A stretch of DNA of 62,694 nucleotides from Phycisphaerae bacterium (GTDB lineage: Bacteria; Planctomycetota; Phycisphaerae; UBA1845). Positions 22,750 through 53,703 of the stretch are shown piece by piece (within the stretch, counting starts at the first letter, position 1; each line of letters opens with the position of its first letter). The stretch spans positions 1 to 62,694 of the forward strand of contig JAZGDL010000332.1 of the NCBI GenBank assembly GCA_036477795.1, in the 5' to 3' direction. Both the position numbers and the translations under genes were made by a program. The notes below the pieces were generated by a model, which was not told where the DNA came from, did no database searches, and worked only from the letters and a program-made list of their open reading frames with translations.

Positions 22750-22810
22750 AAGCCTAACGTTCCTTTCTTTGGACCTTCTCGGTGATTCTACTATTCTCAA
22801 GCGGGCGCGA

Positions 22811-24765: not shown

Positions 24766-24792
24766 AAAGGATGTCCTCGGTGGCCTCGAACA

Positions 24793-26242: not shown

Positions 26243-27079
26243 ATGAAAGCGTGCGGTGTGGTACTCGCCGGGATCCTGGCATGCGCCGCCTCGGAAGCGG
26301 GAGAGGTGGAGGAAACGCTGAAGCAGAAGGTTTCCTACACGGAAGTCGAAGCAATAGAGGGAGGAACGATCTCCGGAAAGGTTTTCTGGAGCGGCGATGT
26401 CCCCGAGGTCACTAAGTTCCCCATCAACAAGAACGTGGAGGTCTGCGCCAAGCACGCCAAGAAGGAAATGGCGGACTCGCCGCGGTTAATCATCGACAAG
26501 GAGTCCAAAGGTGTGGAAAACGCGGTGGTCTTCCTGGCGGACATCAGGGAAGGCAAGTCGCTCGAGACAATCGAGACGCCCGTGTTCGACCAGAAGAACT
26601 GCACGTACGACCCGCACATCCTCCTAATAAGGGCTGGGGCGCGATTGCAGATGAAATCGAGCGACGACATCTTGCACAACATCCACGCGGTGGGCCCCTC
26701 CAAGTTCAACAAGCCCTTTCCCCTGCGGAACACGATCATCAAACAGAAAATGCGCAAGCCGGGCGTCTCCGTGCTCAGTTGCGACGCCGGGCACTCCTGG
26801 ATGAGCGCCTACATATTTGTCGTGCAACACCCGTACTTCGCCTTGACCGACGAGAAGGGCGACTTTGTCCTGAAGGACGTTCCCGCCGGCACCTACAAGC
26901 TGATGGTGTGGCACGAGGGATGGACGGTGGCCAAGACGGACTCCGATAGCGAGGGGAAGATTACGCGCTACACGTTCGACGCGCCGAAGGAGACCCAGAA
27001 GTCGGTCACCGTGTCGTCCGCAGGCGAAGTTGAGATGAGATTCGCGCTCTCGGCTGAGGGACTCGAAGAACAGGAATAG
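26243..27079 (+). CDS. Exported cupredoxin-like protein, paralog 2
   Basis: AGGAGG RBS; DQKNCTYDPH, LHNIH, CDAGHSWM, HPYFALT. Confidence 0.85.
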   Translation: MKACGVVLAGILACAASEAGEVEETLKQKVSYTEVEAIEGGTISGKVFWSGDVPEVTKFPINKNVEVCAKHAKKEMADSPRLIIDKESKGVENAVVFLADIREGKSLETIETPVFDQKNCTYDPHILLIRAGARLQMKSSDDILHNIHAVGPSKFNKPFPLRNTIIKQKMRKPGVSVLSCDAGHSWMSAYIFVVQHPYFALTDEKGDFVLKDVPAGTYKLMVWHEGWTVAKTDSDSEGKITRYTFDAPKETQKSVTVSSAGEVEMRFALSAEGLEEQE

Positions 27080-27257
27080 AGTGGGATGAATTCAGAATGT
27101 CGAACAGCGAATGGCGAAAGACGTCATGCGGAACGCCCCCGCGAGTCCCTGCGGAAGCGCTCCCCTGTCGGGTCGCGGTTAAACATTCGCTATTCGCTAT
27201 TCGACATTCGCTATTGGCGGAGAAGAGGTGTCGCACGCGACACCGCTAAGCAATGCC

Positions 27258-28187
27258 ATGACCGAAAACGCGAAACCTGCGGAAGCAACGGATTCGAATC
27301 ACGCTCCCTTACGGTCGCGTCTCGGTGGTGCTCCCGTGGTGTGGTCCTTCGCGATCCTCTTCGCCTTCTGGATGTTCTTTCAGATCGGCGTTCCCTTCAT
27401 CGCGAAATGGGTCACCGGGAAGGAGACCGCGAGCCTGACCGTCGACCTGGTCTTCACGCGGATGCAGTTCGAGGACGTCAAGGTGGGCGCGCCGCTTCCA
27501 GCCAGTCTGGTGAAGATGTACATGGGCATGACCACCGTGGCCATCCTTGTCTACATCAGCATCACGGACGTTGGGCTCCAACGGTTCGTCGCGCCCGTGC
27601 GGAATCTCTTGTTGGTGGAGAAGCCCAAGGGGCTCGTAGCGTTCAAGTACGCTTGCATGGCCGCCTTCGCGTTCCTGATCGCGTTCCTGGTCTACGATGC
27701 GAACCGGTTCCATTTGGAGCCGCCGACGGAATTGCGAACGATCCACCCCACGCTGCCGGGCAAGTACCTCGATATGAGCAATCCCTTCCCCTGGACGGAG
27801 GAGAACATCAAAGAGGGGCGCGAGCTCTATGTCGCCAACTGTTCCTGGTGCCACGGAGACCGGGCCGACGGGAACGGGCTGTTGGCCGGCGGGTTCAATC
27901 CGGCTCCGATCGATTTCTCCGCCGCCGGAACGATCGACATGCTGCCCGAGAACTACCTCTTTTGGAGGATCAAAGAGGGCGGCGCGGGGCTCCCCAACGA
28001 ATCCTGGCCGTGGGCGTCCGCTATGCCGGCTTGGAACCCGTCGGGCAAGGGGACCGGAAAGGTGTCGCACGCGACACCGCTAAACTTGGATATCCCGGCA
28101 GAGCATCGCTTGAGCGACGAAGACATATGGCTGGTCATCATGGGAGCCTACGATGTCGCGGGGCGGAAACCCGCAAAGAGAGACTGA
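27258..28187 (+). CDS. Membrane-anchored monoheme cytochrome c (set 1)
   Basis: Three hydrophobic helices; CSWCHG; LFWRIKEGGAGLP..PWASAMPAW. Confidence 0.88.
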   Translation: MTENAKPAEATDSNHAPLRSRLGGAPVVWSFAILFAFWMFFQIGVPFIAKWVTGKETASLTVDLVFTRMQFEDVKVGAPLPASLVKMYMGMTTVAILVYISITDVGLQRFVAPVRNLLLVEKPKGLVAFKYACMAAFAFLIAFLVYDANRFHLEPPTELRTIHPTLPGKYLDMSNPFPWTEENIKEGRELYVANCSWCHGDRADGNGLLAGGFNPAPIDFSAAGTIDMLPENYLFWRIKEGGAGLPNESWPWASAMPAWNPSGKGTGKVSHATPLNLDIPAEHRLSDEDIWLVIMGAYDVAGRKPAKRD

Positions 28188-28188
28188 G

Positions 28189-29913
28189 ATGAAAGGGCTG
28201 CACGCTCCCCTTCGGGTCGCCGCTAAACTCAGTGCTCTGGTGGTGATCGCCTGCGCCCCCCACCTGGGGCGAGCACAGGAGACACCTCCGCCTGAGAACG
28301 AGGAGACCGTCCAAGCGGGCAAGATCATCTATGAGATGCGCTGCGCAGCGTGTCACGGGCTGGAGGGGGACGGCCAAGGCCTGGCGGCGCCCCACATGCT
28401 CCCACAGCCTCGCGACTTCACGGACATCGTCTATAAGCTCCGCAGCACGGCCTCGGGGGAGCGGCCCCTTGAAATCGACCTGTTCCGGACGGTCAGCCAG
28501 GGGGTCCCCGGAACGCCCATGACCTCTTGGCAGGAGATTCTCTCGGAGCGGCAGCGCTGGCAGGTGGTGCACTACATCAAGACGTTCGCGGCGGAGGATT
28601 GGGCGGAGGAGCTGCCCGAGGACGTGGTCATTAAGCTTCCCGACTGGGAAGGGGTGGGGGGTGTCGCACGCGACACCGCAAAACGGGGAGATGATAGGAC
28701 GCTGGCGCGCGGCAAGAAGCTGTATGAAGTTCTCAAGTGCGGGGAGTGCCACGGGGACGGAGGCAAAGGTAACGGACCCAGCGCCAAGACGGTGCAAGAC
28801 GAGTTCGGCAACCCGATGTGGCCGGCCGACCTGACACGTCCCGACCTGTTCCGCGGTGGGAGCGGGATCCAGGACATCGCGCGGGCCTTTATCACGGGCC
28901 TGGGCACTACGCCCATGCCCTCCTATGACGACTATTTCACGCTGTTCAGCGAGAGCGAAGACCTGCCGGAAGACCAGGTAATCCTGCACGTTCCCCGCGA
29001 TACCAACGCCCTGGCGCTGGCACACTATGTCCTGAGCCTGGGCGCGAATCAGAGCCCCAAGCGCCAGCGCCGGGAGGAACAGCAGATCCTGGCGAGCTAC
29101 ACCGACGGAGAGATTCCGGACGATCCGGATTCTCCAGAGTGGGACAAGACCCAGGGCGTGATCATGAAGCTGTCGGCCCAGTTGACTGTAGCACCGAGAT
29201 GGCAGTTCGCCAACGTCGATCGCCTCCTGGTGGATGCTCTGTACAACGACGAGGAGCTCGGCATCCTCATCCAGTGGGACGACCGCACCGAAGACCGCGA
29301 GCACGAGGAGGACGACTACAAATTCGAGGCCCGCTCCAAGTCGGTCGCCCTCCCGACGCGGAACGACCTCGCAGAGCTGAGGCAGAAGGCGTTCGCTGAC
29401 GCGCTATCGATCCAGTTTCCCACCGGGACTGGAGAGGGGGCGAAGCGGCCCTTCTTCGCGCTGGGCGAGCCCGAGGCGCCGGTGGAGAGTTGGCGCTGGC
29501 AAGCCAGCCCGCTGGTCCGGGCGCTGGCAAACCAGCCTGCTGGTCGGGATGGCGAGAGATTTACGGCGAAGGGCTTTCATCTTCCGCCGGAGAACGTGGA
29601 GGAACTCTTCACGAACGCGAAATACGACGACGGCCGCTGGAAGGTCGTGTTCAAGGTCGCGATCGCGGAGGATAAGAGGTTTACGCCGGGGCAATACCTG
29701 CCGATCGCGTTCGCGGCGTGGGACGGCTCGAATGGCGAGAGTGGCACGCGGTGCTCGATCTCCTCGTGGTATTGGTTCCTCTTGAAACCCCGGGGAAGTG
29801 CTGCGCCCTACGCCTACGCCCTGTTGGCCTTCGTGATGATTGGTCTCGGCGAGTTCTTACTGATCAAGAGATTGAGAGAGAACCAACAAGATCCGGCCAT
29901 GCAGATTATCTAG
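28189..29913 (+). CDS. Diheme cytochrome c fused to an EbdC/NxrC-like heme b (DOMON-like) domain, C-terminal anchor (set 1)
   Basis: CAACH and CGECH; PRDFT..YKLRST; QWDDRT, DALSIQFP, AFAAWDGSNGE; C-terminal helix. Confidence 0.85.
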   Translation: MKGLHAPLRVAAKLSALVVIACAPHLGRAQETPPPENEETVQAGKIIYEMRCAACHGLEGDGQGLAAPHMLPQPRDFTDIVYKLRSTASGERPLEIDLFRTVSQGVPGTPMTSWQEILSERQRWQVVHYIKTFAAEDWAEELPEDVVIKLPDWEGVGGVARDTAKRGDDRTLARGKKLYEVLKCGECHGDGGKGNGPSAKTVQDEFGNPMWPADLTRPDLFRGGSGIQDIARAFITGLGTTPMPSYDDYFTLFSESEDLPEDQVILHVPRDTNALALAHYVLSLGANQSPKRQRREEQQILASYTDGEIPDDPDSPEWDKTQGVIMKLSAQLTVAPRWQFANVDRLLVDALYNDEELGILIQWDDRTEDREHEEDDYKFEARSKSVALPTRNDLAELRQKAFADALSIQFPTGTGEGAKRPFFALGEPEAPVESWRWQASPLVRALANQPAGRDGERFTAKGFHLPPENVEELFTNAKYDDGRWKVVFKVAIAEDKRFTPGQYLPIAFAAWDGSNGESGTRCSISSWYWFLLKPRGSAAPYAYALLAFVMIGLGEFLLIKRLRENQQDPAMQII

Positions 29914-29939
29914 CTCGAGATAGAAGTGAGGACAATCGT

Positions 29940-30959
29940 ATGAAGCTAAGAACATTTTTTGCCGTCCCAGTCCCGATGTACATCGGGATGATCGCGGTCC
30001 TGGGAGGATGCGTTGCAGTATCCGGCGCGCCCGGCGAACAGAAAGGTGTCGCACGCGACACCGCTAAGCGAAGAGATGTCGCACGCGACACCTTGGAACA
30101 TTCCGGCGCGCAATCCGCAATCCGCAATCCGCAATCCTCAATCCCCAATCCCCAATCCCCAATCCGCAATAGGATTGAGAGGTTGCACTGGGAAGATGCG
30201 ATCGCCATTAAGACCCCTGTTTCCTATGATCTGGTGGAGCTCGGTCGCAGGACGTACAACACGCGTTGTCTTATCTGCCACGGACGGGAAGGGCACGGGG
30301 ACGGGTCGGCAGCGAACTACCTCGACACCAAACCGAGGGATTTCACCAAGGCCATCTTCAAGTATCGCACTACGCCCCAGGGATCTTTCCCGCGCGACGA
30401 GGACCTCTTCCGATCCATCAGCGTCGGCTTCCCCATCTACGGCATGCCCTCCTTCCACTATCTCTCCGCCCGCCAGCGGTGGGGCCTGGTCTACTACGTG
30501 GAGAAGCTCTGTGAGGCAGGTTTCCGAAAGAGCCTGGAAGACGACGGGGACTCCGACCCTGACGAGATCAAGGAGATCCTCGACGAGAGGCTCACGCCGG
30601 AAAAGCCCCTCGACGTGGGCAACGCGCCGGAATGGAACGACGACGCCATCGCGCGAGGCAAGACGGTCTACCAGGAGCTCCAGTGCGCCACCTGTCACGG
30701 TGACAGGGGCATGGGCGACGGGCCTTCCGCCAATGATCAGACGGACGTATGGGGCAACGAGCTCACACCCGTGCCCTTCGCGCTGAACCCGTACTTCATG
30801 AAGGCTGGTGGTCGGCCGCGGGACATCGTTCGGGTGCTCATGACCGGCGTGGGCGGAACGGGCATGCCCCGGTTCGAAACGCAGAATCAGGACGATTACT
30901 GGAAACTCGCTTACTACGTCCTGCAACTCGCCGACGAGCGCTCCGAAGAGAACCAGTAA
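29940..30959 (+). CDS. Diheme cytochrome c
   Basis: CLICH and CATCH; PRDFT..FKYRTT; GMPSF and GMPRF distal Met. Confidence 0.88.
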   Translation: MKLRTFFAVPVPMYIGMIAVLGGCVAVSGAPGEQKGVARDTAKRRDVARDTLEHSGAQSAIRNPQSSIPNPQSPIRNRIERLHWEDAIAIKTPVSYDLVELGRRTYNTRCLICHGREGHGDGSAANYLDTKPRDFTKAIFKYRTTPQGSFPRDEDLFRSISVGFPIYGMPSFHYLSARQRWGLVYYVEKLCEAGFRKSLEDDGDSDPDEIKEILDERLTPEKPLDVGNAPEWNDDAIARGKTVYQELQCATCHGDRGMGDGPSANDQTDVWGNELTPVPFALNPYFMKAGGRPRDIVRVLMTGVGGTGMPRFETQNQDDYWKLAYYVLQLADERSEENQ

Positions 30960-30980
30960 ATGTTCTGGAGAATAATAAGG

Positions 30981-31724
30981 ATGAAAAGCATGAAGAGCCA
31001 TGCCGTAATCGGAGTCGTGGCCTTGTTCGCCGGGGCGCTGAGCGTCTCGTACGGCCAGCAGAACACGGAACCGGATAAGGATTTCGCCACCATCACAGGC
31101 AAGATCAGGGTCACAGGAGACGAGGTCCCCGGGCCCGAGAAGAAGCCCATCAACAAGGATCCGGAGGTCTGCGGCAAGGGACAAAGGGATATCCACTGGT
31201 ACAAGGTGGTCGACGGTCGCATCGACGAAGCCATCGTGTTCCTGAATGGAGACTTTGACGGGGCGAGCTGGACCGGCGCCGAAGCCTCTGCCAAGCTCGT
31301 CCAAGAGGGTTGCTTCTTTAAGCCCTACGTCGATATTTGGAAGAGGGGCGCGGAGGTCACCATCATCTCCAAGGACGCCGCCGCCCACAACATCCACACG
31401 TATGAGCGGATCGGTGAAGCCCGTCGCGAGCTCTTTAACTTCAACCAGCCCAATAAGGACGTGAGGAAGGTGGTGATCAAACCGCGGCGGAGCCAGTTCA
31501 TCGAACTGACCTGCGACAACCACGACTTCATGGCCGGCTGGCGGTTTGTGGCCAAGAACCCCTACTGCACGGTGGCGCGCGGCGGCACGTTCACACTCAA
31601 GGTTCCCCCGGGGAGCCATACCCTGAAGGTATGGCATCCCATGATGGGCGTTCTGGAGGAGGAGATCGAGGTCAAGGCGGGGCAGAAGATGACCGTGGAT
31701 TTCGAGTTCGAGTACGAAGAATAG
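30981..31724 (+). CDS. Exported cupredoxin-like protein, paralog 3
   Basis: QEGCFFKPY, AHNIH, CDNHDFM, NPYCTV; signal peptide. Confidence 0.85.
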   Translation: MKSMKSHAVIGVVALFAGALSVSYGQQNTEPDKDFATITGKIRVTGDEVPGPEKKPINKDPEVCGKGQRDIHWYKVVDGRIDEAIVFLNGDFDGASWTGAEASAKLVQEGCFFKPYVDIWKRGAEVTIISKDAAAHNIHTYERIGEARRELFNFNQPNKDVRKVVIKPRRSQFIELTCDNHDFMAGWRFVAKNPYCTVARGGTFTLKVPPGSHTLKVWHPMMGVLEEEIEVKAGQKMTVDFEFEYEE

Positions 31725-31796
31725 GATGATGAAGAAAGGCACGTAGGCACGAAGGCACGAAGTAGGATCATGAAGAAACGTACGAAAAGTAGGCGC

Positions 31797-34022
31797 ATGA
31801 AGGAACTCCTGTCCCCGCGCTGGCGCTTGGGGCTCGGAATTCTGCTACAGGTTGTTCTGGCCGGTGGTGTCGCTCCCCAGGCGCGGGGCGACGATGCGAA
31901 AATGGTGGAACTGGGGAGGATGCTCTTCTTCGAGAACCGCCTCTCGGGCGACGACGGATTCTCCTGCGCTAAGTGCCACGATCCCGAGAAGGCCTTCACC
32001 GACGGGCTGGCCCTTTCGAAAGGCTATCCGGGAACCATGTATTTCCGGAACACCAAGACCGTGATGAACGTCGGCGAGATGGAGTCCCTGTACTGGGACG
32101 GGAGACTCTCCGGCAAGGACCTCCCCACACTCGTGCGCGACCACATCGCGGAATCGCACTTCATGAACACCGACGGCCGGCTCCTCAGCGAGCGGCTCCG
32201 GCAGGTTCCCTATTACGAGAGGACGTTCCGAGAGGTGTTCCAGACGGAGCCGCGCTACGGCGGTATCCTCAAGGCGGTGGCAGCGTTCCTGCGCACGCTC
32301 AACTCCGAGAACGTGCCCTTTGATCGGTTCCTTGACGGGGACCGGAGCGCCATCTCCGAAACCGCGAAGAAGGGCTACGAGCTTTTTACCGGCAAGGCCG
32401 GCTGCGCAAACTGTCACAAAAGCCCACGGGTTGCAACCCGTGGGCGTTCGGAGTTGCTGACCGACGGCAAGTTCCACAACACCGGCGTCCCGATGAACGA
32501 TGAAATCTTCGCAGAGCCGATGCGACACATCGTCTTCAGGAGGTTTTTCAAGACCTTCGGTGTGGCGGGCTACGGCGATCTTGATGAGGACGTGGGACGG
32601 TACGCCGTGACCAAGAACGCCGCGGACCGTGGCGCTTTTCTCACCCCGAGTCTGAGAGAGGTAAGCCGGACGGCGCCCTACATGCACAACGGGATGCTCA
32701 AGACCCTCACCGACGTCGTGGACTTCTACAACCGCGGCGGCGGGAAAGCCCACGGATTGGAATCCGTGGGCTTGAAGGCGCTGGGACTCACGAAGCAGGA
32801 GAAGGAGGCCCTGGTCGAGTTCCTCAAGACGCTGAGCGGGGACAAACTGGTGGTGGAGGTTCCCAAGCGGCTCGAATACGAACTGCGCCCGCTTCCTACG
32901 TTCCATGCTCCGCCCATCGAAGACGAGGGCGGCGACATCGGGACGATCGTCGACTTCCGGTCGGTTCCTCCGATCGGGGCGCTGCCCGAGCCGCCCATCC
33001 CGCCGGACAATCCTGTAACCGAGGAGAAGGTCGAACTGGGAAAGTTACTCTTTTTCGACTCGCGTTTAGCTGGCGACGCATCCAACTCCTGCGCCTCCTG
33101 CCACGATCCGAAACTGGGCTGGGGCGATGGGATCGACCTGTCGCGCGGCTATCCGGGGACCAAGCACTGGCGAAACGGGAACACGGTGATCAACTCCGCC
33201 TACTTCAAGAAGCTCTTCTGGGCCGGCTCGGTGACCAGCTTGGAGAAGCAGGCCAACAGCGCCATCACCGGCAACGTGGCCGGCAACGGCGATCCCATGA
33301 TGATCGAGGAGCGCTTAGCGCAGATTCCGGAGTACGTGGAACGGTTCAAGAAGGTCTTCGGCACGGAGCGGCCGCTCTACGGGGACGTCCTGAAGGCCAT
33401 CTCCACGTTCGAGCGGAAGATGGTCATCTCCCGCAACACGCGTTTCGACCGCTACGCGCGGGGCGAGAGGACAGCCCTGAGCGCGTCGGCCAAGCGGGGT
33501 CTGGACCTCTTCCAGGGCAAGGCGCGGTGCATCCTGTGCCACAACGGTCCGAACTTCACCGACGAGGACTACCACAACCTTGGCGTTGGGGAGAACGAGG
33601 CCTTTGCCCAAGACGTTCAGAGGCAGATCACCCTCCGCTTCGAGTATTTCGCGAAGGGCGTACCGGAGCGTTACTACCACGAGGCCCGATGGGACCTGGG
33701 CCTGTTCTACCGGACAAAGCATCCTCGCGACATGTGCAAGTTCCGCACGCCTCACCTGCGCGAGCTGAAGTGGACGGTCCCGTTCATGCACAACGGGGTG
33801 TTCTACACGCTGGAGGAGGTGGTGGACTTCTACGACCGGGGAGGCGACGAGTCACCCGGCAAGAAGGACCCGCTGATAAAGCCTCTGAACCTGACCAAGA
33901 AGGAAAAGAAGGATCTCATCAAGTTCCTGGAAAGCCTCTCCAGCAAGAAGAAGCCGCTCCAAATCAGACCACCCGTTCTTCCGGAGTACGCGGTGATGAT
34001 ACCGAAAGGGCTAGACAAATGA
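31797..34022 (+). CDS. Fused tandem diheme cytochrome c peroxidase/MauG protein (IdrP1-P2-like)
   Basis: Two CcP units: LGRMLFF..CAKCH..CANCH..TAPYMHNG and LGKLLFFD..CASCH..CILCH..VPFMHNG; an alternative start lies at 31770. Confidence 0.9.
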   Translation: MKELLSPRWRLGLGILLQVVLAGGVAPQARGDDAKMVELGRMLFFENRLSGDDGFSCAKCHDPEKAFTDGLALSKGYPGTMYFRNTKTVMNVGEMESLYWDGRLSGKDLPTLVRDHIAESHFMNTDGRLLSERLRQVPYYERTFREVFQTEPRYGGILKAVAAFLRTLNSENVPFDRFLDGDRSAISETAKKGYELFTGKAGCANCHKSPRVATRGRSELLTDGKFHNTGVPMNDEIFAEPMRHIVFRRFFKTFGVAGYGDLDEDVGRYAVTKNAADRGAFLTPSLREVSRTAPYMHNGMLKTLTDVVDFYNRGGGKAHGLESVGLKALGLTKQEKEALVEFLKTLSGDKLVVEVPKRLEYELRPLPTFHAPPIEDEGGDIGTIVDFRSVPPIGALPEPPIPPDNPVTEEKVELGKLLFFDSRLAGDASNSCASCHDPKLGWGDGIDLSRGYPGTKHWRNGNTVINSAYFKKLFWAGSVTSLEKQANSAITGNVAGNGDPMMIEERLAQIPEYVERFKKVFGTERPLYGDVLKAISTFERKMVISRNTRFDRYARGERTALSASAKRGLDLFQGKARCILCHNGPNFTDEDYHNLGVGENEAFAQDVQRQITLRFEYFAKGVPERYYHEARWDLGLFYRTKHPRDMCKFRTPHLRELKWTVPFMHNGVFYTLEEVVDFYDRGGDESPGKKDPLIKPLNLTKKEKKDLIKFLESLSSKKKPLQIRPPVLPEYAVMIPKGLDK

Positions 34023-34600: not shown

Positions 34601-34619
34601 TAACAGCAAGGAGTTGGCA

Positions 34620-37268: not shown

Positions 37269-37388
37269 CGAATGGCGTCGCGATGTACATCGGGGCTGCG
37301 CGCCATGATCAGGCGCGACCTTCCGCTTGCGGGCTCTGTGCGGCTCCACCGTCCCGGAAAAGGCACTTGAGGAGACCACGCACGCGCC

Positions 37389-40850: not shown

Positions 40851-40893
40851 CCGTAGGGTCCGCCGTGCGGACCAGTTCGTCCGGAGTTAAACA

Positions 40894-41805: not shown

Positions 41806-41818
41806 ATTGAGTAGGGCA

Positions 41819-46988: not shown

Positions 46989-49027
46989 TGAAACGCAAGG
47001 GACGAAGGGACGAAGGGACGAAGGGACGAAGAGACGAGACCAACGAGTTTAGCGGCGACCCGAAGGGGAGCGCGTACCCTCGCGCCGGCGATACCATCCT
47101 CGCCGTAGACCCCCTAACCCCCGACCAGTCGGACCGGACAAGTCCGACTGGTCGGTCCGCGATCTATCGGTCCATCTTGTTGGCGGTCGACTCCTCCGAC
47201 CACTCCGACCGCGCTACCGAGGAGGCGGCGGCGCTGGCCGCCCTGTACGGCGCACAGGTCACCGGCGTGCACGTCTACGCTGCCAAGCTGCACGACCTGC
47301 GATTCCGCCAGATGGAGGGCGGCCTACCGGAGCAGTATCGCCAAGAGCAGGAGTTGGAGCGACAGCGCGACATACACGATGACCTGATCACCCGCGGCCT
47401 GTCCGTCATCACCGACTCCTACCTGGACCAGGCCGAAAAGGTCTGCCAACGCCAAGCGGTGCGCTTCGCCCGGCGGAGCCTGGAAGGCAAGAACTACCGC
47501 GAGCTGGTCACCGAGGCCAACCGACCAGTCGGACTTGTCCGCGGCGGCTACGACCTGTTGGTCTTAGGCTCGCGCGGCCTGGGGGCGATCGAAGGCGGGA
47601 ATCTAGGAACTGTCTGCCAGCGCGTGGCCCGCCGCAGCGCGATCGACACTCTGATCATCAAGGAGCCCAAGCGGCGGCTGTCGGAGGGCCCTATCGTTGT
47701 GGCGGTCGACGGTTCGGATCGGGCCTACGGCGGCCTGTTGACCGGCTTGAACCTGGCGCGGCACTGGGAGGTGCCCGTCGAGGTGGTGGCTGCCTACGAC
47801 CCGCACTACCACTACGTGGCCTTCAACCGCATCGCCGGCGTGCTCTCGGAGGAGGCTCACAAGGTGTTCCGCTTCAAGGAACAGGAGAAGCTGCACGAGG
47901 AGATCATCGACTCGGGTATCGCCCGCATCTACGAGTCACACCTAAAGATGTCCGAAATGATCGCCGGAGATCTCGGCGCCGAGGTGACGACGGTGTTGCT
48001 GGAGGGCAAGCCCAATCACGTCATCGAGGAACACGTCAGACGAGTGAAGGCATCGCTACTGGTAGTCGGTAAGTTGGGCATCCACGCGGACGATGGTCTT
48101 GACATTGGAGGCAACGCCGAATCGCTACTCCACGGCGCCCCTTGCGCGGTGCTGCTAAGCGAGCGGACCTACCGTCCCCCGTTGGATGAGGTGGCGGAGC
48201 TGACCATGTCCTGGACCAAGGAAGCCGAGGGTATGATGGAGGCGGTGCCGCAAATGGTTCGCAAAATGGCGCGCATGGGCATTCTGCGCTACGCCCAAGA
48301 GCGGGGGCACACCGTGATCACCGGCAAGATTGTCGAGGAGGTGACCAAGCTCATGTGTCCGGTTCGACCCGATGGGAGAGCGTCCGAAACCACCCGCTTA
48401 GCGGTGTCGCGCGCGACACCCCATTGGTCGGTGGAGGCCCTGGCTCGTTTGGCGCGCGTGCCGGCGGGTTTCATGCGCGACGCCACACGCCAGCGTATCG
48501 AAGACTACGCCCTTAAGGTCGGCGCCGGCGAAGTCACCCTGGAGGTGGCGGAACAGGGAATCGCCCAAGCGAAGCAGGCCATGCACGAGGCCGCACGCGA
48601 CGGAACCGATCCGAGCCCCAAGCGCCAGCGCGGGGAACGCGAAGAGCCCGCGCTCACCTGGACCGCAGAGGCTGAGCAAGCCCTGCTCAGGGTGCCGGAA
48701 GGATTTATGCGGGACTTAACGCGACAGCGGGTGGAGGCCTTTGCCAGCCGCCACGGCAAGAACGAGGTGACCAAGGATGTCATGGACGCAAAGTACGCCG
48801 AGTGGGGAGAGGGCTCTGCCAGCCAACGGTCCGAACTCCCCTGGGACGACGACACACTGGAACACGTCGGCCGGATTCCCGAGTTCGTCCGCGGAATGGT
48901 CATCAAGGAGGTGGAAGGGTGTGCTCGCCGAATGGGCGTTGAGGCCGTCTCCATGAAGGTGCTGGAGCACGCCCGTCGCACCTGGCAGGAGCACGGCGTT
49001 TTTCACTCGGAGGACAACCTACAGTAG
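46988..49027 (+). CDS. Tandem universal stress protein domains fused to four PCP_red-like helical domains
   Basis: ILLAVDSSDHS and IVVAVDGS; GSRGLG and GKLG; four W(T/S/D)xxA...(V/I)PxF(M/V)R-type units. Confidence 0.88.
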   Translation: MKRKGRRDEGTKGRRDETNEFSGDPKGSAYPRAGDTILAVDPLTPDQSDRTSPTGRSAIYRSILLAVDSSDHSDRATEEAAALAALYGAQVTGVHVYAAKLHDLRFRQMEGGLPEQYRQEQELERQRDIHDDLITRGLSVITDSYLDQAEKVCQRQAVRFARRSLEGKNYRELVTEANRPVGLVRGGYDLLVLGSRGLGAIEGGNLGTVCQRVARRSAIDTLIIKEPKRRLSEGPIVVAVDGSDRAYGGLLTGLNLARHWEVPVEVVAAYDPHYHYVAFNRIAGVLSEEAHKVFRFKEQEKLHEEIIDSGIARIYESHLKMSEMIAGDLGAEVTTVLLEGKPNHVIEEHVRRVKASLLVVGKLGIHADDGLDIGGNAESLLHGAPCAVLLSERTYRPPLDEVAELTMSWTKEAEGMMEAVPQMVRKMARMGILRYAQERGHTVITGKIVEEVTKLMCPVRPDGRASETTRLAVSRATPHWSVEALARLARVPAGFMRDATRQRIEDYALKVGAGEVTLEVAEQGIAQAKQAMHEAARDGTDPSPKRQRGEREEPALTWTAEAEQALLRVPEGFMRDLTRQRVEAFASRHGKNEVTKDVMDAKYAEWGEGSASQRSELPWDDDTLEHVGRIPEFVRGMVIKEVEGCARRMGVEAVSMKVLEHARRTWQEHGVFHSEDNLQ

Positions 49028-49185
49028 TGCAGCGGTTGTTAAGCTGTCGCAATCGGATATGATGGCGCGATCATCGGGTCAGCCGAATGCTGTGCGCCGA
49101 AGATCCGGCGATGAAACGCGGAGTCGAGGCGGATGATTCAAATCGACTTGGTCGAGATCTACTCCCCGTTGGAGGTCGTGGAACC

Positions 49186-49377
49186 ATGAAGGCTAAGACC
49201 TTTGATTGCGTGGAGATGAAACACGAGATCCAGCGCCGTCTGCGCAAGGAGCGAGGTGGACGATCCTGGGCCGAGCGAAACCGGATGATTCGTCAGGCGC
49301 TTCGCGACGATCCGCATTTGGCTCGCTTGTTGGACACGGAGTGGCCGCCCGCAACGACGAACCGCGCGGAGCCATGA
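49186..49377 (+). CDS. Small hypothetical protein (antitoxin-like, KTFDCVEMK)
   Basis: GGAGG RBS; 63 aa. Confidence 0.55.
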   Translation: MKAKTFDCVEMKHEIQRRLRKERGGRSWAERNRMIRQALRDDPHLARLLDTEWPPATTNRAEP

Positions 49378-49564
49378 CTTGCACGATGGCGGCCGTACGC
49401 ATGCACGGGAGCTGGACGCGGGTGCGATCACCCCCGTCCGCGACTACAGGATCAGGGTCTCAATGGGAAAACACAACATATGAGACCGCCAAGAATACAA
49501 GAAATAGGGGACTGTCCCGAGTTACCCAGTTATCTTCAGTTACCTTTGAGAACGAAAGAGAGCC

Positions 49565-51082
49565 ATGCGGTGGTTGACGTTGCTAAAACTTAGATCTAGG
49601 AAGCCAGGAAGACGACGGCGAGTCGTCGAACAACTAGGGAACTCAAGGGATGAGGGAGCCTTCGAACTACTGATCGAAGCACTCACGGACAAAGAAGTGT
49701 CCGTAAGGGTCGCAGCGAGTGTAGCGCTAAGGAAGTTCGATTCAAAGGGGGCGAAGTCTGGAGCAGCTAGGGCGGCCTTCGCGAGAGTTGTCGGGGCGCT
49801 GAAGGACGAGGACGCCGATGCGCGCGAGGCGGCAGCTGAGGTTCTCGGTCTAATCGGTGATCGGCGAGCTGTCGAGCCGCTCACGGTAGCGCTCCACGAC
49901 GAGGCATGGCATGTGAGAAGGGCAGCAGCTAAAGCGCTTGGCGCGATCGCTGATGAGAGAGCTTTTGAACCACTGGTTATCGCGCTCGATGATGAAGAAC
50001 CGCATGTGAGGCCAGCGGCAGCTGAAGCGCTCGGGATGATCGGCGACAAGAGAGCGCTCGAACCATTGATCGTAGCACTCGAGCGGGACGATTGGGAGGC
50101 GTCCGCCGCAGCGGCGCAGGCACTGGGGAAGATCGGAGATGTGCGGTCTGTCGAGCCTCTAATCGCTGCGGTCAAGAGAGGCCACTGCGCAGTACAAGCT
50201 CTTGCAGCGGTAGCTCTTGGGGCGCTCGGAGACCCCCGCGCAATCGAACCCCTGTTTGCGTTATTAACTGAAAGGGTCGGAAGCCTGGCCTATTGTGCAA
50301 AGGAGGCGCTCGCTCGCCTCGGGGTCCAGGAGGCCGATTTCCCGCCTGCGTTCGAACTGTATAGTATTCGCCTGAAGCACGAAGACTTCAGCGCTCGCGA
50401 AGACGCAGTAGAGAGCCTCAGACGGCTCGAGGATCCCAGGGCCGTTGAACCCATAATCGCCGCCCTCAAGGATGAGAATTACAGCGTGCGCGAAAAAGCA
50501 GCAAAAGCGCTTGCGCATTTGGCCGATTCTCGGGCGATTGACTCGCTAACGGTCGCCCTCGGTGATGAGAAAGAAGAATACGTGCGACGTTCGATCAGAG
50601 GTGCCCTGGATCGCATCCAGAGTCGTGAGAAGCCAATTTCCCATTCTTGGGTTCTAGCGGATGAAGACATCATACGAGATGCTCGGGATTTCGTGAGTGC
50701 ATTTGAGGGAATTCGAGCCACAGAGCAAATCACGAGTACGGAGAAACCGTGGCAAATGGCCGCAGCAGGTCGGTTTGCCTACTCTAATGGTAAGGCAACC
50801 GATGCATTGATCGAGGCGATAAAGGATTGGGCACCCCACCTAACGGATGCGCAGATCAGCGACGGACTACGAGCGCTTTGGGACTATGACCGAGAGTTGA
50901 GCTCTGTACACGAAAAGGACGGTGTTCTATGCCCGGAAAAGAGAGACTGGGGCGAGTATCTAGACCCGAAGCGTCGGGATCCCAGCTACATGTTCTCGTG
51001 CGTACTATGCCTCCTGTACCTCACCGAGAAAGGCGTAACCATTGATGAACCGCATCCGGGATCCCTAAAGATATCCGTTTGA
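49565..51082 (+). CDS. HEAT/PBS-lyase repeat protein
   Basis: Many VRxAAAxALGxIGDxRAVEPLxxAL units. Confidence 0.9.
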   Translation: MRWLTLLKLRSRKPGRRRRVVEQLGNSRDEGAFELLIEALTDKEVSVRVAASVALRKFDSKGAKSGAARAAFARVVGALKDEDADAREAAAEVLGLIGDRRAVEPLTVALHDEAWHVRRAAAKALGAIADERAFEPLVIALDDEEPHVRPAAAEALGMIGDKRALEPLIVALERDDWEASAAAAQALGKIGDVRSVEPLIAAVKRGHCAVQALAAVALGALGDPRAIEPLFALLTERVGSLAYCAKEALARLGVQEADFPPAFELYSIRLKHEDFSAREDAVESLRRLEDPRAVEPIIAALKDENYSVREKAAKALAHLADSRAIDSLTVALGDEKEEYVRRSIRGALDRIQSREKPISHSWVLADEDIIRDARDFVSAFEGIRATEQITSTEKPWQMAAAGRFAYSNGKATDALIEAIKDWAPHLTDAQISDGLRALWDYDRELSSVHEKDGVLCPEKRDWGEYLDPKRRDPSYMFSCVLCLLYLTEKGVTIDEPHPGSLKISV

Positions 51083-51189
51083 ACCCGAAGAAGCAACGAG
51101 GCGGGTGGCCCACCTCCTCTGGAGGTGGGGGACTCGATTTGAGCCCAAATTGGACGGCAAGTTAGCCAAGACGCGGACGAAGATGAGTC

Positions 51190-51450
51190 ATGACGTTCAG
51201 GTTGACACGCCATGCTGAGGAGGAGCTGAAGAGGCGGATGATCCCGCGTGAGTTGTTGGATTCGGTGCTGGAGAATCCCCAGCAGGTTGTGCCCGAGTAT
51301 GGCGGGAAGAAGGCCTACCAGTCGAAACTCGACTTCGGAGGTGGTAAAACCTACTTGCTCAGAGCAATCGTCAACGACTTGGTTGACCCGGCAACGGTGG
51401 TAACCGTCTATCGAACGACTAAACTGGAGAAATACTGGAGGAATCTATGA
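51190..51450 (+). CDS. DUF4258-like putative toxin
   Basis: FRLTRHAEEELKRR..., VVTVYRT; overlaps the DUF2283 gene. Confidence 0.75.
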   Translation: MTFRLTRHAEEELKRRMIPRELLDSVLENPQQVVPEYGGKKAYQSKLDFGGGKTYLLRAIVNDLVDPATVVTVYRTTKLEKYWRNL

Positions 51451-51671
51451 GGGTAACTTACGATCCTGAGACCGACATCGTGCGCGTCCTGTTCGGCAAC
51501 GCGTCCATCGAGGAGAGCGACGAGGACAAGCCTGGCGTGATTCTGGACTATGACAAGGACGGCAACATCGTCGGGCTGGAAATCCTTGACGCCTCCAAGC
51601 GCATGGATAATCCGCGTTCGCTGGAATACGCCGTAGAGGACGCTCCATCCTCTCTGAGGGTGGGGGACTGA
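51447..51671 (+). CDS. DUF2283 putative antitoxin
   Basis: MRVTYDPETD..ILDYDKDGNIVGLEILDAS. Confidence 0.85.
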   Translation: MRVTYDPETDIVRVLFGNASIEESDEDKPGVILDYDKDGNIVGLEILDASKRMDNPRSLEYAVEDAPSSLRVGD

Positions 51672-51769
51672 TTTGAAAATCAAGGTGTCCCAGCGTACGG
51701 CTCCGTCCTCTGCCCAGAAAGGCACGGAGGACCGCGCGACCGGGCGCCGCTGAGCCTGGTCGTCGATAG

Positions 51770-52996
51770 GTGATGGATGCAGCGATGGAATTCGTGCCGT
51801 ATGTCATCTCCTGGAACCTCACCGCCAGGTGCAACCTGCGCTGTAAGCATTGCTACATCGACGCCTCCAAACCGATGCCCGGCGAACTTTCGACGGCGGA
51901 AGCGCTACGCGTTCTCCATGAGATTGCGGAGGTGAACTCCGAGACTCTCTTGATTCTGACCGGCGGCGAACCGCTGATGAGGCCTGACCTGGAAGAGCTG
52001 GTCGCGCGAGCCTCCGGGTTGGGCATGACGGTGGTCCTCGGGACGAACGCCACGCACCTCACGGAGGATCGCGCACGCGCCCTGGCGGAGCAAGGCCTGG
52101 CGGGAGTGGGGGTCAGCCTTGATTCACTCCTTGCTTGGCGCCACGACGACTTCCGCGGCGTCAGAGGTGCGTGGGAAGCGACCTTGCGGGGGATCGACGC
52201 CGCCCGCCGCGCCGGGATCGATGTGCAGATACAGATGACGCTGACCCGTGAAAATGTCCGCGAGCTACCGGCGGTCGTACGCTTTTCGCAGGAGACCGGG
52301 GCCCGCGTGGTAACCGTGTTCTTTCTGGTCTGCACGGGCCGCGGGCAAGATGTAGTGGACCTGACACCGGAGGAATATGAGCACACCTTGCAGTGGCTCG
52401 TCGGTGTAAAACACGACGGAATCATGATCCGTCCCCGCTGTGCCCCGACGTTCCGCCGCGTGCTGGCCCAAAAGGATCCCGACTCGATCCTGCTGAAATC
52501 CGACGCCGGTCGCTGTATGGCGGCGAAGAACTACTGCAGGATCACTCCTGACGGCAAGGTCACGCCATGCCCCTACATGCCCTTGGTCGCGGGGGATATG
52601 CGGAAGGATTCCTTCGGGATGATCTGGGAAAAGGCTCCGCTGTTTGAGTCGTTGCGGAACCCGTCGCTGCAAGGCCGCTGCGGGGATTGCGAGTATCAGG
52701 AGCTTTGCGGGGGGTGCCGCGCCCGGGCCTACGCGGCCACCGGAGATCCACTTGCCGAAGATCCCTGGTGCACATACGTTCCCGGGACCGATCCGAGCCC
52801 CAAGCGCCAGCGCGGAGAGCGCGAAGAGACCACCATCACCTGGACGGCACAAGCCGAGGCTCGCATCGAAAAGGTTCCGTTCTTCGTGCGGAGGATGGTT
52901 CGCTCCGTCGTTGAGGCGGCTGCTAGACGAGAGGGGCTCGCAAAGGTTACAGTTGAGGTGTTGGATAAAGCACGACGGAGGGTGAGGTCGCGATGA
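51770..52996 (+). CDS. Radical SAM/SPASM protein (NirJ/AhbD/PqqE-like) with a C-terminal PCP_red-like domain
   Basis: WNLTARCNLRCKHCY, TGGEPL, CMAAKNYCRITPDG..PCPY, CGDCEY..CGGCRARA; WTAQAEARIEKVPFFVR. Confidence 0.9.
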   Translation: MMDAAMEFVPYVISWNLTARCNLRCKHCYIDASKPMPGELSTAEALRVLHEIAEVNSETLLILTGGEPLMRPDLEELVARASGLGMTVVLGTNATHLTEDRARALAEQGLAGVGVSLDSLLAWRHDDFRGVRGAWEATLRGIDAARRAGIDVQIQMTLTRENVRELPAVVRFSQETGARVVTVFFLVCTGRGQDVVDLTPEEYEHTLQWLVGVKHDGIMIRPRCAPTFRRVLAQKDPDSILLKSDAGRCMAAKNYCRITPDGKVTPCPYMPLVAGDMRKDSFGMIWEKAPLFESLRNPSLQGRCGDCEYQELCGGCRARAYAATGDPLAEDPWCTYVPGTDPSPKRQRGEREETTITWTAQAEARIEKVPFFVRRMVRSVVEAAARREGLAKVTVEVLDKARRRVRSR

Positions 52997-53703
52997 CACG
53001 GAAGGTTGAATCGAAGACCGTCAAGATGCCGGCGGTGTTTCTGGAGTGGCAATGCCAGGAACGCCAAACCATGTTTGCTGCTTTGCGGCGCGGTGAGCAC
53101 CCGCGATTCCTGGCTAGCCACCTGCCGGTGCTAAGCACGCTCAACAGCGAACCGACCGCGTTTCCTATTCATGCATCAACGAAAGGCGTAGGACTTTTTC
53201 CCAAGGAGGAGCACCTGGCCGAGCATGTCGACGAAATCAGCGACTGTCTGGCACGATCAGAGCATAAGCATGCGCCGGACTCCCTCGACGAGCGCATCGA
53301 GACCACCCTGTCCCTGTACAATCGACCGGAGCGCATCGATCAGGGGGTTTTCGGAGGCATTGAGATCTTTCGCGGGCAGACCTATCGCAATCTGCTGATC
53401 GACGCCCGCGCTTCGTTGCTCTTCACGGGCTTTGGCCCTCAGTACTTGAGCTACCAGTTCAACTGCGACGTGGAACTCGTCGAGCCGCAAGATGCTCGTT
53501 TCGAGTTTCTGCGGGGCATGCGCTTGCTCTTTGAGCAAGAACGATTCCACATCCAACAGCCGGAACACACGCTGGGCTATGTCTTCCACATCCGGGAAGT
53601 CTTCGACAAGACACCACGAGCGTTGGTCGGAGGAAAGCAGAGGGCATGCCCGCTCCGCGCCGGGCCCGGCCCACACCGAAGCCCCCCCCAACCCTTCGCT
53701 TAG
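52993..53703 (+). CDS. Hypothetical protein, possibly an FMN-binding split-barrel fold
   Basis: ATGA overlap; QTYRNL..ASLLF..SYQFNC..EVFDKTP pattern; its stop codon is supplied by repeat family A. Confidence 0.6.
   Translation: MTRKVESKTVKMPAVFLEWQCQERQTMFAALRRGEHPRFLASHLPVLSTLNSEPTAFPIHASTKGVGLFPKEEHLAEHVDEISDCLARSEHKHAPDSLDERIETTLSLYNRPERIDQGVFGGIEIFRGQTYRNLLIDARASLLFTGFGPQYLSYQFNCDVELVEPQDARFEFLRGMRLLFEQERFHIQQPEHTLGYVFHIREVFDKTPRALVGGKQRACPLRAGPGPHRSPPQPFA

Follow-up and report, generated by a model that had tools for sequence, protein, structure and literature searches.

Organisation of the locus

Genes resembling those of dissimilatory iodate reductase (Idr) lie among genes for membrane haem proteins in the DNA of a Phycisphaerae bacterium (GenBank assembly GCA_036477795.1, contig JAZGDL010000332.1), of which positions 1 to 62,694 of the forward strand, the whole stretch analysed, are referred to here as the window. 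Positions 26243-53703 form one co-oriented, tightly packed run of approximately twenty genes on the forward strand, and the intergenic distances from g01 to g15 range from 4-nucleotide overlaps to gaps of about 150 nucleotides. The first-pass annotation, made from the sequence alone, had described this run as a double cytochrome c peroxidase (CcP), a Rieske subunit and a molybdoenzyme of the arsenite oxidase (AioA) family, flanked by CydA-like proteins, further cytochromes, cupredoxin-like proteins, a Usp fusion and a radical SAM enzyme. All of these elements were found on the forward strand at the positions it gave, and a script counted exactly sixteen CxxCH motifs in 26243-53703, the number it had reported. 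Gene labels were obtained from Pfam and NCBIfam scans. The genes of the run are as follows, with (+) and (-) here and below denoting the forward and reverse strands (aa, amino acids; TM, transmembrane).

26243-27079 (+): g01, secreted cupredoxin-like protein (profile and ligand alignment)
27228-28187 (+): g02, membrane protein with about three TM helices and a C-terminal monoheme cytochrome c; B-type cassette
28153-29913 (+): g03, diheme cytochrome c with an EB_dh heme-b domain and a C-terminal TM anchor; B-type cassette; true start probably 28189
29940-30959 (+): g04, diheme cytochrome c
30960-31724 (+): g05, secreted cupredoxin-like protein, encoded immediately 5' of the peroxidase gene g06
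31770-34022 (+): g06, fused double diheme cytochrome c peroxidase, 750 aa, with two CCP_MauG domains and four CxxCH motifs
34019-34600 (+): g07, Rieske small subunit of the idrB type, bearing a twin-arginine motif (Pfam Rieske, TIGR02694)
34620-37268 (+): g08, idrA-type catalytic subunit, 882 aa, with Rieske_3, Molybdopterin and Molydop_binding domains
37389-39548 (+): g09, CydA-like (bd-like, OR-N family) membrane haem protein, A type (PF01654)
39549-40850, start uncertain between 39549 and 39723 (+): g10, membrane-anchored diheme cytochrome c; A cassette
40894-41805 (+): g11, membrane monoheme cytochrome c, paralogue of g02; A cassette
41819-43702 (+): g12, diheme cytochrome c with EB_dh domain and C-terminal TM anchor, paralogue of g03; A cassette
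43699-45759 (+): g13, CydA-like (bd-like, OR-N family) membrane haem protein, B type (PF01654)
45756-46988 (+): g14, membrane-anchored diheme cytochrome c, paralogue of g10; B cassette
46988-49027 (+): g15, fusion of two Usp and four PCP_red stretches (Pfam)
49565-51082 (+): g16, HEAT/PBS-lyase-repeat protein (Pfam)
51190-51450 (+): DUF4258 protein following g16 (Pfam)
51770-52996 (+): g17, radical SAM/SPASM enzyme resembling NirJ2/AhbD, with PCP_red at its C-terminus (Pfam, NCBIfam)
52993-53703 (+): g18, protein matching no Pfam or NCBIfam family

Planctomycete homologues of IdrA (PMC8692401), the accessory gene cluster of nitrite oxidoreductase (NXR; PMC3578206) and the OR-N family of bd-like proteins (PMC10839748) have each been described separately. 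As far as literature searches show, what is new at this locus is the pairing of idr with bd-like cassettes.

The catalytic subunit g08

g08 passes the NCBIfam model TIGR02693 (474.5 bits, cut-off 359.05), and its best match among solved structures is an arsenite oxidase (PDB accession no. 4aay_A, E 7.9e-88); the copy of the PDB searched with g08 held no iodate reductase structure. The IdrA of Azonexus hydrophilus NCP973, one of five isolated dissimilatory iodate reducers, which converts iodate to iodide in culture (PMC13455634), is also named as an arsenite oxidase in RefSeq, the same name as that of the model; TIGR02693 thus does not separate Idr from Aio. When g08 was compared by tblastn with 72,556 plasmids, the result was sharply bimodal: the top three records, from A. 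hydrophilus NCP973, Thiothrix subterranea and Vibrio sp. THAF190c, showed 49-58% identity, and the remaining 60 records were lower (27.7-30.2% among the matches listed, including AioA of Thermus HB8, NT-26 and Ralstonia).

The phylogeny of g08 comprised 91 rows and was obtained by a quick IQ-TREE search under LG+G4 with branch support from the SH-like approximate likelihood ratio test (SH-aLRT) and no bootstrap. Besides the window protein, it held the proteins of 80 idr loci (one genome per GTDB species), two Planctomycetota genomes and three Idr-like plasmid proteins, together with three AioA references, an Aio-like protein of Cytobacillus and, as outgroup, another Mo enzyme of the same genome. 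The IdrA reference was that of NCP973, those of strains SCT and IR-12 not being among the rows. The 80 loci are the best 80 of 564 confirmed relatives and were inspected for 10 kb either way; many are cut by contig ends, so the gene counts given for them below are lower bounds. g08 and NCP973 IdrA fall within one clade of 86 rows (stem of 1.21 substitutions per site, SH-aLRT 100), outside of which lie all three AioA references and the Cytobacillus protein. Inside this clade g08 belongs to a different subclade from NCP973, composed mostly of Planctomycetota. It is 56.6% identical to NCP973 IdrA versus 32-35% to AioA, and it carries the clade state at all 17 diagnostic columns (at least 97% uniform in the clade, with AioA uniform and different).

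The CxxCxxxC motif for a 3Fe-4S cluster is intact in g08, the Rieske_3 domain scores 120.3 bits, and the Mo-ligand column holds Gly, as compared with Ala in AioA and Cys in the outgroup. An N-terminal 3Fe-4S motif and the lack of a Cys or Sec ligand to Mo are traits expected of IdrA (PMC10100899). The column of NT-26 Glu207 is Asp in 79 of the 86 clade rows, g08 among them, and that of Glu453, which follows a GGHQ motif, is Arg in g08. Three of the four substrate-pocket residues of AioA, which we take to be NT-26 residues 199, 207, 447 and 451, are kept. On these features of its sequence g08 is an IdrA-type catalytic subunit and not a canonical AioA. The first-pass annotation had read the catalytic head as Idr-type, and the tree, the identities and the plasmid search bear this out: the large subunit does not fall inside AioA. 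Iodate is the presumed substrate, judging from clade and gene context.

The Mo-ligand column (NT-26 AioA Ala203, approximately residue 198 of g08) varies among the 86 clade rows, with Gly in 55, Ser in 23 (including NCP973), Thr in 4 and Ala in 3. Serine could in principle ligate Mo, and Mo coordination across the IdrA clade may therefore be non-uniform.

In a contig scan, idr loci were common in Planctomycetota, Chloroflexota, Methylomirabilota and Nitrospinota; IdrA homologues of Planctomycetaceae, Rokubacteria, Lindowbacteria and NC10 had already been reported (PMC8692401). Among the scan matches listed, the named relative closest to g08 (71% identity) is on a contig labelled as a metagenome-assembled genome (MAG) of a Methanobacteriota archaeon (L016, JACQPP010000123.1); this archaeal label among bacterial relatives could reflect gene transfer or a binning error. 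The genome of Stieleria marina K23_9 (L030; NZ_CP036526.1: 5593848-5616523), recorded as a complete genome of a named strain, encodes a cupredoxin-like protein, two CcPs, a Rieske protein and an IdrA-type protein with 64% identity to g08, and no cassette was seen within 10 kb.

Peroxidase, Rieske, cytochrome and regulatory partners

Each half of the fused peroxidase g06 is closest to the matching separate CcP gene of its relatives, and by gene order g06 corresponds to an idrP2-idrP1 fusion. The fused form occurs in 12 of the 80 related idr loci; within 10 kb, a CcP homologue is found in 77 and a Rieske gene in 74 of them. Peroxidase genes have been used to tell idr from aio loci (PMC8692401), and the order idrP2, idrP1, idrB, idrA has been reported for SCT and IR-12 (PMC10989891). 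The plasmid locus of NCP973 reads kinase, sigma-54 regulator, CcP, CcP, small subunit, large subunit, cytochrome c and MoaA, and the window shares its order of CcP, CcP, Rieske and Mo subunit.

The Rieske protein g07 scores 98.4 bits against TIGR02694 (cut-off 95.65). It possesses the twin-arginine motif TSRRTFLLAGG; the Pfam TAT_signal score of 16.5 bits is below the cut-off of 22.7, so the assignment to twin-arginine translocation (Tat) rests mainly on the motif. The Tat leader is thus carried by the IdrB-type g07, and the IdrA-type g08 begins without a leader peptide.

Two regulatory genes adjoin the 3' end of the run on the opposite strand:

53748-55115 (-): sigma-54-dependent response regulator of the idr-linked type
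55112-57598 (-): dCache/HAMP histidine kinase of the idr-linked type

The regulator is 45-47% identical to the idr-adjacent regulators of Azonexus NCP973 and Thiothrix. The sensor region of the kinase (residues 125-537) is 31% identical to the idr-linked kinases of the same two bacteria over approximately 420-440 aligned residues, and the kinase beside a cassette that stands without idr (genome G228, see below) aligns with the catalytic part alone. The pair is conserved in genome G444, which belongs to another genus of the window's family. It is probable that the idr unit is controlled by this adjacent dCache kinase and sigma-54 regulator.

The diheme cytochrome g04 is a likely candidate for the direct redox partner of Idr, since its homologues are placed directly downstream of idrA in genomes G092, G290 and G444.

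Cupredoxin-like proteins

Pfam called no cupredoxin domain in g01 or g05, the single match being a weak C-terminal CarboxypepD_reg. Their assignment was made from an alignment of 21 rows, comprising three window paralogues and 18 homologues from idr loci, the third paralogue being encoded upstream of g01:

24793-25596 (-): third cupredoxin-like paralogue, with a predicted type-1 copper domain and a CarboxypepD_reg beta-sandwich (tblastn, Pfam, alignment)

The residues His143, Cys185, His188 and Met191, which correspond to the copper ligands, and Asn144 are invariant in all 21 rows, and every one of the 35 extracted homologues (a set with some duplicate entries and one mis-started frame) has the C-x2-H-x2-M loop. 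Comparison of the 21-row profile with solved structures returned a 'Blue (Type 1) copper domain protein' (5fc9_A, E 1.5e-6) and amicyanin (E 7.8e-4), with further matches to pseudoazurin and to the copper domain of nitrite reductase. The protein of 24793-25596 is 37% identical to g01 (tblastn) and keeps the His, Cys, His and Met ligands. All three products are therefore predicted to carry a type-1 copper domain.

Homologues occur beside the peroxidase genes, in the position of g05, in 30 of the 80 related idr loci, and no cupredoxin is annotated in the idr locus of NCP973. The frequency of this gene in idr loci suggests that, outside the Proteobacteria, a copper protein supplies Idr with electrons; the literature search found no paper joining iodate reductase and cupredoxin.

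Elsewhere in the host genome, the gene for subunit I of a haem-copper oxidase (G000:C37:7731-13612) lies approximately 4 kb from another cupredoxin-like homologue (35% identity to g01), which hints that these copper proteins act with terminal enzymes of more than one kind.

The bd-like cassettes

Each cassette consists of a CydA-like protein, a diheme cytochrome c, a membrane monoheme cytochrome c and a diheme cytochrome c with an EB_dh domain. The A cassette is contiguous (g09-g12), and the B cassette (g13-g14 and g02-g03) is split to both sides of idr. The CydA-like proteins match PF01654 (Cyt_bd_oxida_I) with 84.5 bits for g13 and 44.6 bits for g09, and the PF01654 matches of the genome lie in this window alone. 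A crude hydropathy count gave 12 hydrophobic segments for g09 and 13 for g13, by a method that undercounts (6 in E. coli CydA). No match of a CydA-like protein to a solved structure reaches beyond residue 286. In the alignment with E. coli CydA, each of the 11 bd-like rows has His19, and each has Tyr in place of Glu99 and Leu in place of Glu445; the alignment is not trustworthy in its C-terminal half. Neither CydA-like protein belongs to a canonical cytochrome bd quinol oxidase (CydAB), which was ruled out because the Q-loop is gapped and no CydB (PF02322) was found in the genome.

Genes of the OR-N1 and OR-N2 type have been described as encoding 14 helices, with up to 40% identity or similarity, and as sharing one operon in some bacteria (Murali et al., bioRxiv 10.1101/2021.01.16.426971). 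Their products have been hypothesised to form together a cytochrome c-oxidising CydAA' O2 reductase, a proposal that is experimentally unconfirmed for a complex that is uncharacterised (PMC10839748). The pair of g09 and g13 appears to fit this reported pair.

The apparatus had been called duplicated in the first-pass annotation. Two cassettes are indeed present; a recent tandem duplication was ruled out, the paralogues being only 26-38% identical (g09/g13 38%, g03/g12 32%, g02/g11 about 26-27%, g10/g14 about 30%) and placed in separate tree groups. In a 29-row tree of CydA-like proteins, whose root on E. coli CydA is unreliable, g13 belongs to a 15-row clade (SH-aLRT 100) with proteins of G092, contig C62 of G228, and Terriglobia and Hydrogenedentes MAGs. 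g09 groups with G116a, G026, the Rokubacteria copy, contig C136 of G228 and anammox (anaerobic ammonium-oxidising) proteins. The cassettes thus represent two ancient paralogue types.

The cassette beside nitrite oxidoreductase and elsewhere

The NXR-adjacent gene set of Kuenenia, Nitrospira and Nitrospina has been described as an alternative NxrC, mono- and diheme cytochromes c, two cupredoxin-like proteins and a bd-like oxidase, the last with 14 helices and conserved haem b ligands and without the quinol-binding Q-loop (PMC3578206). The flanks of idr had been read as an accessory set of this type, and both the component list and the homology and synteny described below agree with that reading.

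The distribution of the cassette was followed in a phylum sample of 401 genomes, in which a CydA-like protein was called as a g13 homologue at E<=1e-40 and IdrA at E<=1e-100. The g13 homologue was found in 24 genomes, 17 of them in one family (f39), with 54-57% identity over the N-terminal two thirds. Hydrazine synthase gamma was above cut-off in 3 of 3 f39 genomes tested, G132 included, which identifies f39 as an anammox family. All 17 matching f39 genomes carry one CydA-like gene each. In G132, a complete f39 genome, the genes run cupredoxin-like, CydA-like, g14-like, g11-like, g12-like, cytochrome c and g15-like, after which come a 411-aa 4Fe-4S protein and a 1150-aa molybdopterin protein, an NXR-like Mo/FeS pair. 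Along almost all of its length, the CydA-like protein of G132 shares 45% identity with g13. The enzyme of G132 was identified solely as a 1150-aa molybdopterin protein beside a 4Fe-4S protein; TIGR01580 (narG) scores the NxrA-like candidates of anammox bacteria far below its cut-off and is consequently a weak NXR detector.

The flanks of idr in the window share homology and gene order with the cassette that adjoins the NXR-like enzyme in an anammox genome. The cassette is nevertheless not specific to NXR, as it stands alone in other Planctomycetota. In G228 the B-type (C62) and A-type (C136) cassettes are on separate contigs, the former preceded by its own kinase and sigma-54 regulator and followed by one g15-like and three g17-like matches. 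The CydA-like family as a whole is very large, 6377 of 8000 scored candidates matching g13 at E<=1e-10 across many phyla.

Recurrence of the pairing

Cassette and idr genes are adjacent on the same strand in four further genomes: G092 (= L037), G116, G444 and the Rokubacteria contig L032 (GWA2_73_35). Together with the window these five genomes span two phyla, differ in gene order and carry IdrA from three subclades. The gene orders are as follows.

G092: two cupredoxins, B cassette, g15, g17, CcP, CcP, Rieske, IdrA, g04, g18
G116: A cassette, g15, g10/14, cupredoxin, B-type CydA-like, directly upstream of CcP, CcP, Rieske, IdrA
G444: regulator, kinase, two cupredoxins, B cassette, g15, g17, g18, fused CcP, Rieske, contig end; IdrA, g04 and cupredoxin on a contig ending in IdrA
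L032: g15, cupredoxin, fused CcP, Rieske, IdrA, CydA-like, g14, g02, g12

G092 also has a short contig (C268) with a second B-type CydA-like gene and two cupredoxin genes. In the 401-genome sample IdrA was found in 5 genomes, the CydA-like protein in 24 and both in 3, on one contig in all 3; among 30 relatives, both genes were found in G444 only. The pairing is conserved in a minority of idr loci. The expectation that the flanking genes would be conserved next to IdrA thus holds for four other genomes, and most idr loci are without the cassette.

Accessory genes g15 to g18

g15 travels with the cassette in G092, G116, G132, G228, G005, G444 and L032. g17 scores 313.6 bits against TIGR04055 and 312.9 bits against TIGR04545, its best models (NirJ2 and AhbD), both below the 500-bit cut-offs, and its homologues, with 60-72% identity, adjoin the cassette in G092, G228 and G444. 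Homologues of g18 were found in G092 (57%) and G444 (72%); the look-alikes that a language model returned for g18 are named PNPOx-like and serve as a lead only. Genes of the g02 type adjoin those of the g14 and g03 types in G092, G228 and G444. g15, g17 and g18 accordingly accompany the cassette rather than idr. No full-length g16 was found in the other loci examined, the one match, in G026, having 20% coverage.

Several domains in 46988-53703 are related to tetrapyrroles, namely four PCP_red stretches in g15, the PBS-lyase HEAT repeats of g16, and the NirJ2/AhbD-like radical SAM domain and PCP_red of g17. Because g15, g17 and g18 travel with the cassette and such domains occur among them, they may mature a haem cofactor for it.

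Host genome

The earlier reading of the host as a probable non-anammox planctomycete was upheld. Hydrazine synthase gamma was not found above cut-off in the host or in any of the 61 genomes of its class, the host among them, by which an anammox host was ruled out. No NarG-type enzyme of the host scored above the cut-off of TIGR01580, a model that is weak for NXR (best match 58.9 bits). The search of the genome for CydB with PF02322 gave no match, and PF06778 detected no chlorite-dismutase-like gene in the genome, which is 96% complete.

Neighbouring genes and short repeats

Upstream of the third cupredoxin gene, two overlapping open reading frames (ORFs), the starts of which are uncertain because of this overlap, are encoded on the reverse strand:

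21958-23115 (-): ORF, PBP_like_2 periplasmic binding protein, PstS-like (Pfam)
22811-24367 (-): ORF, Porin_5 porin (Pfam)

Together with the third cupredoxin, the porin and the PstS-like protein (21958-25596) are divergent from the cluster and, by analogy with AioX, could serve the entry or sensing of an oxyanion. Binding protein and porin (21958-24367) may be linked to the cluster, as their position suggests.

Four families of short repeats (M1-M4) lie mostly inside coding regions of the cluster, where they are translated in frame; M1 is a perfect palindrome.

M1: copies at window positions 21881, 27227, 28061, 28660, 30045, 30075, 48403, 53705 and 56976
M2: copies at window positions 37934, 41418, 42758, 47047, 28203 and 41877
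M3: copies at window positions 29043, 34031, 48604, 52786 and 31812
M4: copies at window positions 30097-30170 and 39737-39782

In g02, a 22-residue in-frame insertion surrounds an M1 copy and is absent from all six aligned homologues; other copies fall at gapped linker positions of the homologues. Genome-wide, with up to two mismatches on both strands, there are 122 matches for M1 (17 on this contig), 25 for M2 (6 here), 155 for M3 and 267 for M4. The in-frame palindromic elements of Rickettsia offer a resemblance. Farther upstream, an ORF of 531 aa at window positions 1437-3032 consists mostly of 66-nucleotide (22-residue) tandem repeats in families of 9-12 copies with 60-78% identity, and at 11704-14457 a 917-aa Endonuclease_1 protein contains six copies of a 55-nucleotide Cys-rich repeat with the peptide motif CDDGLFCNG.

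Proposed electron transfer chain and alternative explanations

The run is proposed to consist of two units. The first (31770-37268) would be an idr-type operon of fused idrP2-idrP1, idrB and idrA, aided by g04 and the cupredoxins. The second would be the bd-like (OR-N) cassette in its two versions, as the membrane end of a high-potential haem and copper chain. The cassette would exchange electrons between the membrane and the periplasmic carriers g04 and the cupredoxins, which would pass them to the Rieske centre of IdrB, on to the 3Fe-4S cluster of IdrA and finally to the Mo site, where iodate would be reduced. The fused peroxidase g06 would remove the peroxide by-product, in keeping with models summarised elsewhere (PMC13455634, PMC10149662).

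That IdrB and IdrA constitute a periplasmic enzyme with Rieske, 3Fe-4S and Mo centres, and that the peroxidase disposes of a peroxide by-product, are predictions well supported by homology. That the cassette forms the membrane end of a chain serving Idr through g04 and the cupredoxins is given even weight for and against; we infer this service, its direction and quinol as the membrane partner. It is favoured because the adjacency recurs in rearranged forms, because g04 and the cupredoxins interleave with the cassette genes, and because exchange between a membrane pool and periplasmic carriers is the only role common to the anammox and the iodate-reducing contexts. The first-pass annotation had Idr wired into the membrane apparatus. 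The adjacency on which that idea drew is real; the wiring itself is an interpretation, and the literature reads the CydA-like family as a cytochrome c-oxidising O2 reductase, not a quinol module.

Several observations weigh against a chain from the cassette to Idr. Lys252 and Glu257 of the E. coli CydA Q-loop fall in gaps in all 11 bd-like rows, and the position of Glu107 holds Glu in g09 and Asp in g13. Cassettes occur where IdrA is not found at E<=1e-100 (G228, G005, G026 and G144), and idr occurs without a CydA-like match in G290 and G369. A CydA-like gene lies within 10 kb in 1 of the 80 related idr loci, and cassette parts in 2. As most related idr loci have no cassette, Idr plainly works without it. 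The co-occurrence counts overstate the link, since related genomes are not independent. The host has a haem-copper oxidase and four cytochrome b genes, so that conventional routes to cytochrome c exist. Scans for regulatory signals returned chance numbers: 4 matches to the sigma-54 promoter consensus (4.22 expected) and, in 25000-44999, 4 sigma-70 promoters (3.6 expected) and 18 terminators (16.4 expected). Operon boundaries and co-transcription are consequently not supported by these scans. The reading of the OR-N family as an O2 reductase (PMC10839748; bioRxiv 10.1101/2021.01.16.426971) belongs among these points too.

On that reading, the A and B CydA-like proteins (OR-N1 and OR-N2) would form with the cytochromes c one CydAA'-type, cytochrome c-oxidising, high-affinity O2 reductase, a parallel electron sink and not a supply for Idr. 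Its placement and regulation together with Idr might suit life where oxic and anoxic conditions meet, or serve to clear O2 or oxidants derived from peroxide that iodate reduction produces. This is the main, if rather doubtful, alternative. Such a function has been proposed for OR-N1 and OR-N2 in the two sources just cited. The 38% identity of g09 and g13 comes close to the upper value of 40% reported where N1 and N2 genes share an operon; both proteins retain His19 and lack the Q-loop residues, and a search for CydB gave no match. One gene of each type, A and B, is present in the window, in G116 and in G228, and the Yamazaki model gives O2 and H2O2 as products of iodate reduction (PMC10149662). 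Against it, all 17 matching f39 genomes, which are anaerobes, have a single CydA-like gene, placed beside NXR in G132, which argues against a dedicated oxidase and against an obligatory pairing of A and B; G092, G444 and L032 likewise pair idr with one cassette type. The lack of a chlorite-dismutase-like match leaves an O2-forming step without a candidate here, and the Tyr and Leu at positions 99 and 445, read from an alignment unreliable towards its C-terminus, also speak against O2 reduction.

It is unlikely that Idr and the cassettes are neighbours without shared function, two mobile respiratory units that happened to enter the same variable region. Both units are patchy in the sample (5 and 24 of 401 genomes) and each also occurs alone, and the window looks rearranged, with its B cassette split, g16 and the DUF4258 gene inserted and many short repeats, all of which speaks for chance co-location. 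Such co-location accounts poorly for adjacency in five genomes of two phyla with different gene orders and IdrA from three subclades, for the single contig shared in 3 of the 3 sample genomes with both units, and for the shared strand and close or overlapping spacing of the genes.

Very little energy is gained from oxidising iodide to iodate with O2, as judged from redox potentials, which counts against a molybdoenzyme working oxidatively in the manner of NXR. Such a direction, with arsenite, antimonite, iodide or an iodine intermediate feeding cupredoxin and cytochrome c and then the bd-like oxidase, is improbable. In its favour, the same cassette accompanies the oxidising NXR of nitrite oxidisers (PMC3578206), g08 is an AioA relative that passes the arsenite oxidase model (474.5 versus 359 bits) with three of four pocket residues kept, and the host has genes for aerobic respiration. 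Against it, g08 is far from AioA and inside a clade with a proven iodate reducer, the peroxidase genes that distinguish idr from aio loci are present (PMC8692401), the sensor kinase resembles those of iodate reducers, and the Glu207 column is Asp.

A broader role of the cassette can be put forward, though only tentatively. It might be a reversible quinol/quinone:cytochrome c/cupredoxin oxidoreductase for periplasmic high-potential oxyanion molybdoenzymes generally, with the radical SAM and PCP_red proteins making or delivering its modified haem. Were this so, the cassette would drive electrons from nitrite uphill to the quinone pool when paired with NXR in anammox bacteria, and would run downhill from quinol to iodate when paired with Idr. 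Idr would then be the first context in which the partner of the cassette is a terminal reductase, which would be hard to square with a pure O2 reductase and would open the function of the NXR-linked bd-like 'oxidase' to direct testing.

Significance and previous descriptions

Marine and groundwater iodate reduction has been attributed mainly to Proteobacteria and SAR324. Stieleria marina K23_9 may make it possible to test iodate respiration of Planctomycetota in the laboratory. As a second and chemically different partner, Idr provides a comparative handle on the function of the NXR-linked bd-like module, since a role that must suit both the NXR of a nitrite oxidiser and an iodate reductase is more narrowly defined than one that need suit a single enzyme. 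Should the two units be coupled by position only, the locus would be just another new Idr family member.

The arrangement had been thought to be without a description. None was found, and the pairing is not unique, recurring as it does in four other genomes. No paper joining idrA and Scalindua was found, and no text linking idr, planctomycetes and the bd-like family; the figures and supplements of PMC8692401 may show such neighbours without comment, as its Fig. 5 and Fig. S1 depict, for Planctomycetaceae and Rokubacteria, the ten genes to each side of idrA.

Comparison with known systems

Compared with AioAB of Pseudorhizobium NT-26, Alcaligenes faecalis and Thermus HB8, the window enzyme has the same architecture of a Rieske subunit and a 3Fe-4S/Mo-bis(pyranopterin guanine dinucleotide) subunit and passes the NCBIfam aio models. 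It differs in the 32-35% identity of g08, its separate clade, the replacement of Glu207 by Asp and of Glu453 by Arg, the presence of peroxidases and the lack of an ars/aio context.

With IdrABP1P2 of SCT, IR-12 and NCP973 it shares the catalytic clade (with NCP973 as the IdrA reference), the gene order, the 3Fe-4S motif and the absence of Cys at the Mo column. As in NCP973, a homologous kinase and sigma-54 regulator are adjacent and a cytochrome c gene is part of the cluster. Unlike the loci of these strains, the window has fused peroxidases, cupredoxins, two bd-like cassettes and a radical-SAM block, and it is without an adjacent moaA.

The CydA-like proteins resemble OR-N1/OR-N2 in their N-terminal CydA homology, the kept His19, the missing Q-loop, the occurrence of two 38%-identical paralogues in one run and the absence of CydB; the parts of the OR-N preprint's text available to us contain no mention of iodate or arsenite.

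The component list is the same as that of the NXR accessory cluster (PMC3578206), and homologues stand in the same order by the NXR-like enzyme of G132. The window differs from that cluster in having no NxrA/NarG-type match above cut-off and two cassette types instead of one, and its cassettes are accompanied by an enzyme of AioAB architecture that is expected to consume, not deliver, electrons.

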